Shown: positions 1,871 to 42,350 of the stretch, in pieces | Layout: each line of letters begins with the position of its first letter | Position numbering within the stretch: position 1 is the first letter of the stretch | Assembly (NCBI RefSeq): GCF_057098645.1 | Contig: NZ_CM169472.1 | DNA length: 64,000 nucleotides | Direction: 5' to 3' (one strand) | The notes under the pieces: model-generated | Database searches by the model: none | Told to the model about the DNA's origin: nothing | Seen by the model: only the letters and a program-made list of their open reading frames with translations | Program-made: the position numbers and the translations under genes

Positions 1871-2443
<573 letters not shown>

Positions 2444-2447
2444 TCAA

Positions 2448-2903
2448 TTACAAATCATCAAGGAAAGTTTTATCCAGTTGTTTGAAGGCGCGCTTAAGCG
2501 TGTCAGCTAATGCCTGGTAATCAGGCTTGCCTTCAACGGGTGCCAACACCTGTCCAGACTCCTGCAATTTACCGCGAACTTCATAAAACCAGTTGAGGAT
2601 AGCAGGGGGTAATGGCGTGACAGAACGCTTGCCCAGCCACCACAATCCCTGCATGGGTAAACTTAAGGCGAACAGCGCAGTGGCAACTGCCGGCCCAAGC
2701 TGACCGCCCAGGGCAATCTGCCAGCAGAGAGTAAATACGGCGATCGGCGGCATAAAACGGATCGCATAACGCGTCATCTTGATAACGCGATTTTCGACAA
2801 AGACCGGGGCAAGGCGTTTTTCCAGCGGCCACGTCTTTGAGTAATGCTGTCCCCGGCGAAACAAGCTAAAAAAATTAACAGAACGATTATCCGGCGTTGA
2901 CAT
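2448..2903 (-). CDS. yfbV: Inner membrane protein YfbV (UPF0208)
   Basis: 151 aa ORF with hydrophobic segments; divergent from ackA as in K-12. Confidence 0.85.
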
Positions 2904-3240
2904 GCTTCACCTCAACTTCACATATAAAGATTCAAAAATTTGTGCAAATTCACAACTCAGCGGGACAACGTTCAAAACATTTTGTCTTCCATACCCACTA
3001 TCAGGTATCCTTTAGCAGCCTGAAGGCCTAAGTAGTACATATTCATTGAGTCGTCAAATTCATATACATTATGCCATTGGCTGAAAATTACGCAAAATGG
3101 CATAGACTCAAGATATTTCTTCCATCATGCAAAAAAAATTTGCAGTGCATGATGTTAATCATAAATGTCGGTGTCATCATGCGCTACGCTCTATGGCTCC
3201 CTGACGTTTTTTTAGCCACGTATCAATTATAGGTACTTCC

Positions 3241-4517: not shown

Positions 4518-6662
4518 GTGTCCCGTATTATTATGCTGATCCCTACCGGAACCAGCGTCGGTCTGACCAGCGTCAGCCTTGGCGTGATCCGTGCAATGGA
4601 ACGCAAAGGCGTTCGTCTGAGCGTTTTCAAACCTATCGCTCAGCCGCGTACCGGTGGCGATGCGCCCGATCAGACTACGACTATCGTGCGTGCGAACTCT
4701 TCCACCACGACGGCCGCTGAACCGCTGAAAATGAGCTACGTTGAAGGTCTGCTTTCCAGCAATCAGAAAGATGTGCTGATGGAAGAGATCGTCGCAAACT
4801 ACCACGCTAACACCAAAGACGCTGAAGTCGTTCTGGTTGAAGGTCTGGTCCCGACACGTAAGCACCAGTTTGCCCAGTCTCTGAACTACGAAATCGCTAA
4901 AACGCTGAATGCGGAAATCGTCTTCGTTATGTCTCAGGGCACTGACACCCCGGAACAGCTGAAAGAGCGTATCGAACTGACCCGCAACAGCTTCGGCGGT
5001 GCCAAAAACACCAACATCACCGGCGTTATCGTTAACAAACTGAACGCACCGGTTGATGAACAGGGTCGTACTCGCCCGGATCTGTCCGAGATTTTCGACG
5101 ACTCTTCCAAAGCTAAAGTAAACAATGTTGATCCGGCGAAGCTGCAAGAATCCAGCCCGCTGCCGGTTCTCGGCGCTGTGCCGTGGAGCTTTGACCTGAT
5201 CGCGACTCGTGCGATCGATATGGCTCGCCACCTGAATGCGACCATCATCAACGAAGGCGACATCAATACTCGCCGCGTTAAATCCGTCACTTTCTGCGCA
5301 CGCAGCATTCCGCACATGCTGGAGCACTTCCGTGCCGGTTCTCTGCTGGTGACTTCCGCAGACCGTCCTGACGTGCTGGTTGCCGCTTGCCTGGCTGCCA
5401 TGAACGGCGTAGAAATCGGTGCCCTGCTGCTGACTGGCGGCTACGAAATGGACGCGCGCATTTCTAAACTGTGCGAACGTGCTTTCGCTACCGGCCTGCC
5501 GGTATTTATGGTGAACACCAACACCTGGCAGACTTCTCTGAGCCTGCAGAGCTTCAACCTGGAAGTTCCAGTTGACGATCACGAGCGTATCGAGAAAGTT
5601 CAGGAATACGTTGCTAACTACATCAACGCTGACTGGATCGATTCTCTGACTGCCACTTCTGAGCGCAGCCGTCGTCTGTCTCCGCCAGCGTTCCGTTATC
5701 AGCTGACTGAACTTGCGCGCAAAGCGGGCAAACGTATCGTACTGCCGGAAGGTGACGAACCGCGTACCGTTAAAGCAGCCGCTATCTGTGCTGAACGTGG
5801 TATCGCAACTTGCGTACTGCTGGGTAATCCGGCAGAGATCAACCGTGTTGCAGCGTCTCAGGGTGTAGAACTGGGTGCAGGCATTGAAATCGTTGATCCA
5901 GAAGTGGTTCGCGAAAGCTATGTTGGTCGTCTGGTCGAGCTGCGTAAGAACAAAGGCATGACCGAAACCGTTGCCCGCGAACAGCTGGAAGACAACGTGG
6001 TGCTCGGTACACTGATGCTGGAACAGGATGAAGTTGATGGTCTGGTTTCCGGTGCTGTTCACACTACCGCAAACACCATCCGTCCGCCGCTGCAGCTGAT
6101 CAAAACTGCACCGGGCAGCTCCCTGGTATCTTCCGTGTTCTTCATGCTGCTGCCGGAACAGGTTTACGTTTACGGTGACTGTGCGATCAACCCGGATCCG
6201 ACCGCAGAACAGCTGGCAGAAATCGCGATTCAGTCCGCTGATTCCGCTGCAGCCTTCGGTATCGAACCGCGCGTTGCTATGCTCTCCTACTCCACCGGTA
6301 CTTCTGGTGCAGGTAGCGACGTAGAAAAAGTTCGCGAAGCAACTCGTCTGGCGCAGGAAAAACGTCCTGACCTGATGATCGACGGTCCGCTGCAGTACGA
6401 CGCTGCGGTAATGGCTGACGTTGCGAAATCTAAAGCGCCGAACTCTCCGGTTGCAGGTCGCGCTACCGTGTTCATCTTCCCGGATCTGAACACCGGTAAC
6501 ACCACCTACAAAGCGGTACAGCGTTCTGCCGACCTGATCTCCATCGGGCCGATGCTGCAGGGTATGCGCAAGCCGGTTAACGACCTGTCCCGTGGCGCAC
6601 TGGTTGACGATATCGTCTACACCATCGCGCTGACTGCGATTCAGTCTGCACAGCAGCAGTAA
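4518..6662 (+). CDS. pta: Phosphate acetyltransferase
   Basis: 714 aa, GTG start, N-terminus [22 protein letters not shown]; classic ackA-pta operon. Confidence 0.98.
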
Positions 6663-20533: not shown

Positions 20534-20590
20534 ATGTGTCCTACGATTTTACGCCCTGTCATCCTGTTCGGGGCGCATTCTAACAGAAAA

Positions 20591-20606
20591 AGAAAACGTT
20601 TGCGTA
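20591..20606 (-). promoter_or_regulatory. PurR operator (PUR box) upstream of cvpA-purF
   Basis: agaaaacgtttgcgta matches the palindromic PurR consensus around AAACGTTT. Confidence 0.65.
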
Positions 20607-20696
20607 GGGATTTCCTTCCCGCGCATCAATAAAAATGGCGCTGAAAAAATATTCAACGCCATCGACTTTTTATGCCTTTGCGGCATCGTTCAATGC

Positions 20697-20967
20697 GTGT
20701 CGGATGCGGCGTAAACGCCTTATCCGACCTACAGTTCTAACCCTGCGTAGGCCTGATAAGACGCGCCAGCGTCGCATCAGGCAACGGCTGTCGGATGCGG
20801 CGTAAACGCCTTATCCGACCTACGGCTCTACCCCTGCGTAGGCCTGATAAGACGCGCCAGCGTCGCATCAGGCAACGGCTGTCGGATGCGGCGTAAACGC
20901 CTTATCCGACCTACGGCTCTACCCCTGCGTAGGCCTGATAAGACGCGCCAGCGTCGCATCAGGCAAG
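20697..20967. repeat. REP/BIME cluster: three tandem ~90 bp units of paired REP palindromes
   Basis: Unit gtcggatgcggcgtaaacgccttatccgacctac...gcgtaggcctgataagacgcgccagcgtcgcatcaggca is repeated three times between cvpA and dedD. Confidence 0.9.
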
Positions 20968-30336: not shown

Positions 30337-31557
30337 TTAATCTTTCAGCTTGCGCATTACCAGCGTGGCGTTGGTGCCGCCGAAGCCGAAGCTGTTAGAC
30401 ATAACAGTGGTCAGTTCGCGATCGGTCGTTTCGGTCACGATGTTCAGACCCGCAGCCTGCTCGTCCAGCTCTTCAATGTTGATGCTCGGGGCGATAAAGC
30501 CGTGTTCCAGCATCAGCAGAGAGTAGATAGCTTCCTGTACGCCAGCAGCGCCCAGAGAGTGACCGGTCATGGCTTTGGTTGCAGAAATCGCCGGGCTCTT
30601 ATCGCCGAACACTTCACGGATAGCTGCCAGCTCTTTCACGTCGCCAACCGGAGTCGAAGTACCGTGGGAGTTCAGGTAATCGATTGGGGTATCAACGCCA
30701 TGCATCGCCATCTTCATGCAGCGTACTGCGCCTTCGCCAGACGGAGCAACCATGTCTGCGCCATCAGACGTTGCGCCGTAGCCAACGATTTCAGCATAGA
30801 TGTGAGCACCACGCGCCAGCGCGTGTTCCAGCTCTTCAACCACCACCATACCGCCGCCGCCAGCGATAACGAAACCGTCACGGTGAGCATCGTAAGTACG
30901 GGAGGCTTTTTCCGGGGTGTCGTTGTATTTAGTAGACAGCGCACCCATTGCGTCGAATTCGCAAGCCATTTCCCAGCACAGCTCTTCGCCGCCGCCAGCA
31001 AACACGATGTCCTGTTTGCCCAGTTGGATCTGCTCTACTGCGTTACCGATACAGTGTGCGGAAGTCGCACACGCGGAGCTGATGGAGTAGTTAACGCCAT
31101 GAATTTTAAACGGGGTGGCGAGGCAGGCAGAAACGCCGGATGCCATCGCTTTGGTGACCACATACGGGCCAACCGCTTTCAGGCCACGCGGGCCGCGCAT
31201 TGCGTCAGCGCCGAACACCTGGAAACGCGGGGAACCGCCGCCAGAACCTGCAATCAGGCCAACGCGCGGATTATTCTGGTAAGCTTCCGGAGAAAGGCCC
31301 GCATCTGCGATTGCCTGCTCCATAGAAAGGAATGCATAAATGGATGCGTCGCTCATAAAGCGCACAACTTTGCGGTCAATGAGGCCAGTGGTATCCAGTT
31401 TTACGTTGCCCCAGACGTGGCTACGCATGCCGGAATCCTTCAGCTCCTGAGAGAAAGTGATCCCTGAACGTCCTTCACGCAGAGATGCCAGGACTTCCTG
31501 CTGGTTATTACCGATGCTGGAAACAATGCCCAGGCCAGTAATCACTGCACGTTTCAT
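30337..31557 (-). CDS. fabB: 3-oxoacyl-ACP synthase I (KAS I)
   Basis: 406 aa; [18 protein letters not shown]; active-site Cys region [10 protein letters not shown]. Confidence 0.98.
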
Positions 31558-31604
31558 TCAATACCTCTGTAAGTCGCACATAGAGTAAGTTTCGAATGCA
31601 CAAT

Positions 31605-31639
31605 AGCGTACACTTGTACGCCGAACAAGTCCGATCAGC
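31605..31639 (-). promoter_or_regulatory. fabB promoter operators: FabR-type palindrome plus adjacent FadR-like site
   Basis: agcgtacacttgtacgcc is palindromic (FabR-like); the adjacent gaacaagtccgatcagc resembles a FadR site; located 50-80 bp upstream of the fabB start. Confidence 0.55.
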
Positions 31640-31649
31640 CAATTAATAG

Positions 31650-41060: not shown

Positions 41061-41560
41061 TGATAATCCACCACCATTGTTAAACTCCCACTAAAATCGG
41101 CCCCTGAAAGTTGTGCACCACTTTGTTTTACCGGGACTGCATTAAGTTTCGGCTGTGATGTGATATTGAAAGGGGTCCAGTTGTTTTCTCCAATGGAGAA
41201 TAGTGAGTTGTTATCTGCATTCTCGATTCGAATACCAAATCCTGGAACCCCTACATCAACGACTTTTTCTCCATTAATTGTGGTGGTGTTTCCTCTCAAC
41301 TGCATACGTAAATCATCAGCTTTTCGGTCAGGGCATGACAACGTATATCCTGCATCTTTACGATAATTACTACCATTGATATCGTTGATATTCACAGTCT
41401 GAAAATCTACTGAACTCCCCGTTACGCTACATGGCGGAGGAGGATCTACATGTACCTGTAAAATGAGATCAACAGGTTTTGAATTTGCAAGGATAATGTT
41501 ATATATCCCACTAACGCCCAGCAGTAATATACCCACCCCCACAACAAAAATTTGTCTCAT
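41057..41560 (-). CDS. yfcR: Fimbrial minor subunit
   Basis: 167 aa with signal peptide; C-terminal MVVDYQ. Confidence 0.8.
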   Translation of the reverse strand: MRQIFVVGVGILLLGVSGIYNIILANSKPVDLILQVHVDPPPPCSVTGSSVDFQTVNINDINGSNYRKDAGYTLSCPDRKADDLRMQLRGNTTTINGEKVVDVGVPGFGIRIENADNNSLFSIGENNWTPFNITSQPKLNAVPVKQSGAQLSGADFSGSLTMVVDYQ

Positions 41561-41575
41561 GTCGCTCTCCCGGCA

Positions 41576-42328
41576 TCAGCCTTTGCGGCTCTGCTCTACA
41601 TCCACCTGGCAGGTATCACCGCCACATTTAAAATACAGCGGCATCCGTGCGCCATAGTCGTTGACGTAAGACAGCACCGGGACGCTATCCATTTTGACCT
41701 TTAACGGCACGGAGGTTTTTGGTGATATCACCATGGGGGAAAATCCCGCTGCCGGATTGCCATTTTTCTGCGCGCTGGCGTTACTGATAACCACGTAGTA
41801 CGGCGTAGGATTATTGACGGTAAACTCCTGACCGCTGCGGGTTAAGGTCTCCTTATGCTGCCACGGGTTTTTCATGCTGACGTTTTCCAGCGCCTTTGGT
41901 CGCCAGAACAGCTTGATGCGCGTTTGCAGCGCTATCTGTAACGTGTTGGGTTTGTTCGATTTCGGCGGAATTTCACGCACGTTGAAGTAGAACACGCTCT
42001 CGCGGTCGGCAGGCAGCTTGTTGATATCCGGCATCCCCTGCACCTTCACCTGGCCGTTCATCATGGAATCGATGCGCTGCACCGGCGGCAGGACCGTCAG
42101 TGGCGAGCTAATCCTGTTACCCTGTTCATCTTCCATCCAGCTTTGTGCCAGATACGGCATTTTCGGGTCGTTATTACGCAGCGTGACGCTGATTGATTTA
42201 TCACTCTCATTAAAAATCAGGCGTGTACGGTCTGGCGTGACAGAGGCCTGTGCTGACAGGCTGGCAGTGGTTAGTAGCAATGCTAGCAACATTGTGGATT
42301 TTTTGGCAGAGCAAAATAGATTCGTCAT
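41576..42328 (-). CDS. yfcS: Periplasmic fimbrial chaperone (PapD-like)
   Basis: 250 aa with signal peptide; chaperone fold motifs. Confidence 0.88.
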   Translation of the reverse strand: MTNLFCSAKKSTMLLALLLTTASLSAQASVTPDRTRLIFNESDKSISVTLRNNDPKMPYLAQSWMEDEQGNRISSPLTVLPPVQRIDSMMNGQVKVQGMPDINKLPADRESVFYFNVREIPPKSNKPNTLQIALQTRIKLFWRPKALENVSMKNPWQHKETLTRSGQEFTVNNPTPYYVVISNASAQKNGNPAAGFSPMVISPKTSVPLKVKMDSVPVLSYVNDYGARMPLYFKCGGDTCQVDVEQSRKG

Positions 42329-42350
42329 GGATCATTCCTTAATCACGTTA

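Follow-up and report, generated by a model that had tools for sequence, protein, structure and literature searches.

PurR, FadR and FabR boxes in a chromosome segment of a non-K-12 Escherichia coli strain correspond to the known K-12 operators

In E. coli, PurR, a member of the LacI family, is reported to act together with a corepressor, hypoxanthine or guanine. On the cvpA-purF-ubiX promoter, where its target would be the palindrome located here at positions 20590-20605, it is described as blocking RNA polymerase. FadR, which belongs to the GntR family, is described as binding, in its ligand-free form, to 17-nt boxes at fadL (two boxes) and fadIJ (one box); these boxes would lie over -10 elements and start sites, resulting in repression, and long-chain acyl-CoA is reported to release the protein. 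At fabB, FadR is known from the literature as an activator, and would act there from a box over the -35 region, at around -40. FabR, of the TetR family, reportedly recognizes the adjacent palindrome in the fabB promoter, in what is probably the spacer between the -35 and -10 elements, and represses the gene, the repression being stronger when unsaturated acyl thioesters are bound. The binding proteins, their ligands and the sign of regulation are given throughout as in the literature.

The DNA analysed in the current study (the window) is a stretch of 64,000 nucleotides from contig NZ_CM169472.1 of RefSeq assembly GCF_057098645.1. It represents a segment of an E. coli chromosome reaching from yfbS to the evgA side, with O145:H28/O157:H7 as the nearest lineage. 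Strain 12E115 of E. coli O145:H28 carries a 1.2-kb piece around the PurR site with 100% identity, and the greater part of this piece occurs in 5276 of the 5426 complete genomes of E. coli. According to the RefSeq annotation of strains 12E115 and MG1655, the genes are arranged in the order hisJQMP, argT, ubiX-purF-cvpA, dedD-folC-accD, dedA, truA, followed by usg, pdxB, flk, yfcJ, fabB and mnmC, and beyond these by sixA, fadJ-fadI, yfcZ, fadL, mlaA, yfdC and tRNA-Arg. The cvpA-purF, fabB and fadI-fadJ genes lie on the minus strand, and fadL on the plus strand. The yfc fimbrial operon (41538-45803) showed 83% identity to K-12, and the gene after fadL (51901-53332, yfdF in K-12) showed 86% identity and is longer in the window (ORF of 426 aa).

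Six boxes were located in this segment, and there is little doubt that they are the established operators of the three metabolite-sensing regulators of E. coli, in their normal places. What was determined for each box was its presence, its position, its statistics, its conservation and its identity with published bound sequences. The matrices used for scoring were built from sites printed in papers, and every site within the window was left out. For PurR, the matrix drew on Table 1 of the ChIP-chip study (PMC3159470), from which 26 of 28 motifs were taken. The FadR matrix comprised four out-of-window boxes, two from fadD and one each from fadBA and fabA, as contained in the EMSA probes of an earlier study (PMC4259882). 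The FadR matrices used in the study rest on four to seven sites, and the FabR comparison, made with no matrix, on two other sites. Both strands of the window (128 kb) were scanned. In a scan for consensus promoters none of the four promoters was detected; their hexamers were identified by visual inspection, with conservation as a check, and the starts of cvpA, fadIJ and fabB were placed from these hexamers.

The PurR operator of the cvpA-purF-ubiX promoter (20590-20605, minus strand) is a 16-nt imperfect palindrome, AAGAAAACGTTTGCGT (ACGCAAACGTTTTCTT on the gene strand), with its CG centre at 20597/20598. It differs at 2 positions from the PurR consensus ACGCAAACGTTTGCGT, which has a central CG. 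With the leave-out matrix the box scored 21.95 bits (p 2.5e-8, E 0.003 per window), a value in the mid-range of known sites, and it was the single significant match; the runner-up in the window reached 12.7 bits, at which 1.3 matches are expected. The same 16-mer was listed for cvpA-purF-ubiX in the ChIP-chip study, in which the region was enriched by PurR with adenine (PMC3159470).

The end of the PurR box lies 56 nt upstream of the cvpA ATG and 7 nt upstream of a conserved TAGAAT (20577-20582, minus strand), which was read from the sequence as the probable -10 hexamer of cvpA and was invariant in the cvpA alignment. With the start placed from this hexamer, the PurR box would occupy about -35 to -20 of the cvpA promoter, which agrees with the ChIP study, where a location between the -35 and -10 elements is noted as common for PurR sites (PMC3159470). 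The scan gave no match to a full consensus promoter at cvpA, due to a poor -35 element.

A second PurR site in the window would be the motif published for 'fabB-mnmC', ACCAAAGCGATGGCAT (31140-31155, minus strand). It scored 9.2 bits, and since about seven such matches are expected by chance, the assignment of this motif to the 'fabB-mnmC' PurR peak looks unreliable. The motif falls inside the fabB coding sequence in the window, and the published ChIP peak (2011 study) is weak.

For the cvpA and fabB alignments, seven loci were obtained via Usg homologues among the best 120 matches listed, namely those of E. albertii, two Salmonella and four Citrobacter. The PurR box was invariant in these seven other species. 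The whole cvpA promoter and 5' leader of about 130 nt (20534-20665) likewise showed no or almost no variation among Escherichia, Salmonella and Citrobacter, and thus conservation at the sampled depth does not single out the PurR box. Such a pattern would also be expected if the boxes were conserved as core promoter or leader sequence, and not via the binding of a regulator, an alternative which has to be considered for the other promoters as well.

The invariance of the cvpA promoter and leader exceeds what the PurR box and the hexamers need. No unusual RNA fold beyond that of shuffled controls was found in the cvpA leader (z -0.34) or the fadL leader (z -0.80). The spacer between dedD and cvpA contains three tandem 91-nt REP/BIME units (20698-20966), two of which matched Rfam naRNA4 (83 bits). 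This array ends about 30 nt before a terminator-like hairpin (20634-20663), which precedes the cvpA promoter.

When all 128 kb were scanned with the out-of-window FadR matrix, the three best matches were, in this order, those at fabB (17.7 bits, E 0.03), fadI (14.2 bits, E 0.7) and fadL site 1 (13.9 bits, E 0.9). Compared with the consensus of the 17-nt box, aaCTGGTCnGACC(T/A)Gtt, the 13-nt core had 1 mismatch at fadI, 1 at fadL site 1 and 2 at fabB. Taken singly, the scores of fadI and fadL site 1 are borderline. Each by itself, these two scores, fadL site 2 (E ~7) and the FabR site (14 of 18 positions) lie within or near the expectation for 64 kb, as would be the case if the boxes were chance resemblances to a degenerate consensus and had no regulatory role. 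The PurR box, with its E of 0.003, speaks against this, and so does the location of the FadR matches, since all three lie at most 130 nt upstream of the start codon of a fad or fab gene. As promoter zones make up less than 1% of the window, the scan suggests a joint chance of the order of 1e-6, so that the joint placement of the three matches at fad and fab promoters is not accidental. No further FadR site above chance was found with the FadR matrix in the window, the upstream region of accD included.

Both FadR sites of fadL lie on the plus strand, site 1 at 51132-51148 (AGCTGGTCCGACCTATA) and site 2 at 51156-51172 (CACTGGTCTGATTTCTA). For this gene, a transcription start 95 nt before the ATG and a functional CRP site centred 157 nt upstream of the start have been published (PMC3460868). 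In the window the centre of the CRP palindrome is at 50999.5, and both published distances fit one start, 51157. With this start, site 1 lies at -25 to -9 and shares bases with the -10 hexamer TATACT (51145-51150, plus strand), and site 2 spans -1 to +16 and covers the start itself. This layout is the classical occlusion arrangement. The fadL EMSA probes of Feng and Cronan, as well as their upstream CRP probe, are present letter for letter in the window (PMC3460868), and the identity of sites 1 and 2 with published EMSA probes extends to a further study (PMC4259882). The EMSA data for the fadL boxes and the fabB stretch considered here are those of Feng and Cronan, and Zhang et al. (PMC3460868; PMC4259882; PMC4537474).

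Only the left half of the box is kept in fadL site 2, which has 3 core mismatches and scored 10.95 bits with the symmetrised matrix, a sub-threshold value at which about seven matches are expected. Column identity over 77 sequences was 0.86 for site 1 and 0.92 for site 2; site 2, although it matches the matrix less well in E. coli, is thus the better conserved site. Where the boxes were found, they had a constant offset of 24 nt and were located about 126 nt (site 1) and 102 nt (site 2) from the start codon, with FadL identity falling to 63%. In most of 78 species the core of site 1, GGTCnGACCTATA, was seen again at about 126 nt from the fadL start codon. Site 1 scored below 7 bits, or was unlisted, in part of the Serratia, Rahnella, Hafnia, Photorhabdus and Pantoea loci.

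The conservation of fadL site 1 may be partly owed to the promoter, with which it shares the -10 hexamer. The presence of this hexamer in the box is in line with conservation as core promoter sequence, as is the high conservation of the fadL region throughout (column identity 0.70-0.92). It was also observed that site 1 decays in several distant lineages of the Enterobacterales, and that site 2 is nearer to the consensus in Yersiniaceae and relatives (loci L061-L082), an example being AACTGGTCTGATTTGTT in L069.

In the fabB promoter the FadR box (31624-31640, minus strand) reads AACAAGTCCGATCAGCC (GGCTGATCGGACTTGTT on the gene strand). It was the best FadR match in the window, and is unlike the FadR box of fabA only at the first two bases (fabA sequence from PMC4259882). 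One base downstream of it lies the FabR palindrome (31605-31622, minus strand), AGCGTACACTTGTACGCC (GGCGTACAAGTGTACGCT on the gene strand), which consists of 8+2+8 nt with one arm mismatch. A hexamer TATTGT (31600-31605, minus strand), situated in an invariant block, and a hexamer TTGTTC (31623-31628, minus strand) were read from the sequence as the putative -10 and -35 elements of fabB. With the start placed from these hexamers, the FabR palindrome would fill the spacer between them and the FadR box would overlap the -35 element. A FadR box over the -35 region and a FabR site in the spacer fit the roles of FadR as activator and FabR as repressor. The overlap with the predicted -35 element is, at the same time, a further feature that conservation as core promoter sequence could account for.

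The FabR 18-mer agreed at 14 of 18 positions with the fabA site AGCGTACACGTGTTAGCT; the core motif, ACAnnTGTnnnnT, lies at 31605, and the best matches in random windows averaged 13.3, with a maximum of 15. Comparable 8+2+8 palindromes occur 34 times in the window, and the known FabR sites are too few for a matrix. Alone, the 18-mer is at chance level and is not significant by sequence. The FadR box and the FabR palindrome taken together form a 36-mer which matched the fabA module at 30 of 36 positions with the same 1-nt spacing, whereas the maximum in 100 random windows was 26. It is this shared module that makes the FabR site convincing as a predicted operator, and it is so only in that context.

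The FadR box of fabB lies inside a published EMSA probe (PMC4259882; PMC4537474), and the FabR palindrome is marked in the fabB probe (PMC4537474). A single base differs between the window and the published probe, and it lies outside the boxes. For Salmonella, ChIP of FabR at fabB and transcriptomic data have also been reported (PMC4804515). The FadR box, the FabR palindrome and the -10 hexamer form a 43-nt block which was invariant in eight sequences (seven other species), with variable flanks.

The FadR site of fadIJ was reportedly first described by Campbell et al. in 2003. In the window this operator lies at 50448-50464 on the minus strand (AAGTGGTCTGACCTGAT; gene strand, ATCAGGTCAGACCACTT). 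It is separated from the fadI ATG by 27 nt and scored 14.2-16.0 bits. The probable -35 and -10 hexamers, TTGGCT (50492-50497) and AAGACT (50468-50473), are both on the minus strand, are separated by an 18-nt spacer, and were conserved over 79 sequences. These hexamers would place the start of fadIJ within the FadR box, in agreement with a review which describes fadIJ as repressed by FadR, with a FadR site that overlaps the transcription start (PMC9329746). The sequence of the fadI box was not found printed in the literature searched, and FadR binding at fadIJ is cited here from the review only.

A scan for FadI with one genome per species gave 80 loci, from genera that included Escherichia, Citrobacter, Salmonella, Enterobacter, Klebsiella, Serratia, Rahnella, Yersinia, Hafnia, Photorhabdus and Pantoea. 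The region upstream of fadI could be examined in 78 of these loci, and each contained, 14-157 nt from the ATG, a FadR box that read ATCAGGTCAGACCACTT or nearly so and scored 11.0-18.3 bits; none of 2137 control windows (150 nt of coding sequence from the same loci) reached 13 bits. Column identity was 0.94 in the fadI box, compared to 0.65, 0.79 and 0.50 in the flanks. Chance resemblance is hardly compatible with boxes which were kept in 78 species of Enterobacterales while the flanks drifted, or with sequences identical to those for which ChIP or EMSA binding has been published. Conservation and published binding effectively refute this explanation, and we consider it vanishingly improbable.

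The same data bear on conservation as core promoter or leader. At fadI the sequence of the box was kept at an identity well above that of flanks at 0.65 and 0.79, even though its distance to the ATG varied from 14 to 157 nt. The positions that did vary in the boxes were mostly those at which FadR sites are degenerate, i.e. the central N and the outermost bases. Hexamers alone do not account for a palindromic pattern of 16-17 nt, and binding to the boxes has been published. Despite the invariance of the whole cvpA promoter and the overlaps with hexamers at fadL and fabB, it is therefore very improbable that the boxes are conserved as promoter sequence and not as operators.

In two Buttiauxella loci (L023 and L050) the fadI box lay 154-157 nt from the start codon, as opposed to 14-89 nt in the other 76, which points to a putative insertion between operator and fadI. 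A CRP-like site, TGTGTcatagcTCCCA, was seen upstream of fadI (50515-50530, minus strand), and its half-sites were conserved in the 79 sequences. Its centre is about 61-62 nt upstream of the predicted fadI start, a typical position for a class I activator. The review mentions a CRP site at fadIJ; published coordinates for this site were not found, and the paper on carbon limitation to which the site is credited has no mention of fadI in its main text.

The box upstream of fadI could also, or instead, be a target of PdhR, another member of the GntR family, which has been reported to bind and activate fadIJ; a genomic SELEX peak for PdhR lies at this operon (PMC7660256). The candidate box of that study (50400-50416, fadI codons 2-7) matched the PdhR consensus AATTGGTnnnACCAATT at 7 of 14 positions (PMC7660256). 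The FadR box, which lies about 50 nt upstream of this candidate, matched it by our count at 10 of 14 on either strand, and from this difference a recognition of the fadIJ operator by PdhR appears possible. The PdhR peak at fadIJ, about 50 nt from the FadR box, might then reflect binding to that box. On the other hand, the FadR consensus is the better fit, with 1 mismatch in the 13-nt core, the deep conservation of the box follows the pattern of FadR sites, and repression of fadIJ by FadR has been reported (PMC9329746). A role of PdhR at this box is thus unlikely, and the two roles are not exclusive. Slightly less likely again is that the fadIJ operator is shared in the sense that FadR and the pyruvate sensor PdhR, two GntR-family regulators with opposite effects, would compete at one box. 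The established role of the box as a FadR operator remains the preferred reading.

The results carry a caution for screening with matrices. A score threshold would miss both fadL site 2 and the FabR site, for which binding has been published, and in the current study these two sites were recovered only via context and conservation. The earlier note on this stretch, which was made from the sequence alone, had proposed matrix scanning as a check, and had named sub-threshold scores as grounds for rejecting the sites. Scanned with the literature-built matrices, the PurR box was significant and fabB, fadI and fadL site 1 were the top FadR matches, in support of the note, and fadL site 2 was sub-threshold. 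The proposed ground for rejection is itself mistaken, since it would wrongly discard fadL site 2 and the FabR site, which are weak or untestable by matrix, yet conserved and with published binding.

As to the sites themselves, the observation made in the earlier note was confirmed and its interpretation supported. Motifs were present at all four promoters it named, but its coordinates were off by 1-4 bases: 20591-20606 for the PurR box is one base to the right of the true range, 51132-51170 cuts two bases off fadL site 2, 50449-50468 was given for the fadIJ site at 50448-50464, and 31605-31639 for FabR and FadR at fabB lacks the last base of the FadR box. The gene calls which the sites were taken to support (ubiX-purF-cvpA, fabB, fadJ-fadI and fadL) are right by the RefSeq annotation of matching genomes. 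The suggestion that the core regulatory architecture is conserved also holds, given that the six boxes equal those of MG1655, that the fadI box was found in 78 of 78 species loci, and that the fabB block was invariant in seven other species.

Stretches of 41-51 nt around each site were single-copy and were found in 5343-5425 of the 5426 E. coli genomes. Identical copies numbered 5348 for PurR (46-nt stretch), 4653 for fadI, 5089 for fadL and 2315 for fabB. The lower count for fabB is due to an A/T polymorphism at 31642, which splits the complete E. coli genomes at about 2315 to 3110.

All the operators described here are already known, ordinary and the same as in K-12, and the value of the results is that of a quality control, in which the gene calls were confirmed. 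They show a non-K-12 E. coli strain keeping the K-12 wiring to the base for purine synthesis, for fatty acid uptake and breakdown, and for unsaturated fatty acid synthesis. In the comparison with MG1655, six of six boxes were identical base for base. The spacer between yfcZ and fadL showed no differences from MG1655, and the spacer between fabB and mnmC one (31642). That between fadI and yfcZ showed three (50434, 50499 and 50573), all of them outside the FadR box.

The PurR operator of cvpA-purF-ubiX is shared with K-12 in its 16 bases, its distance to cvpA and its gene neighbours, without any difference in the operator itself. The spacer between dedD and cvpA does differ, upstream of the promoter, in that two extra 91-nt REP units are present relative to K-12 (MG1655 is 182 nt shorter). 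For the FadR operators of the K-12 fad regulon (fadL sites 1 and 2, and fadIJ) no differences in the boxes were found, the sequences being those of MG1655, and the position of these boxes over the -10 element and the start fits a repressor role, as in the K-12 fad regulon. The fabB promoter resembles the module of FadR activator and FabR repressor sites known from E. coli fabA and fabB. Its order of box, one base and palindrome is the same as in fabA, and the module as a whole is identical to the K-12 fabB probe, with position 31642, two bases outside the FadR box, being A in the window and T in K-12.
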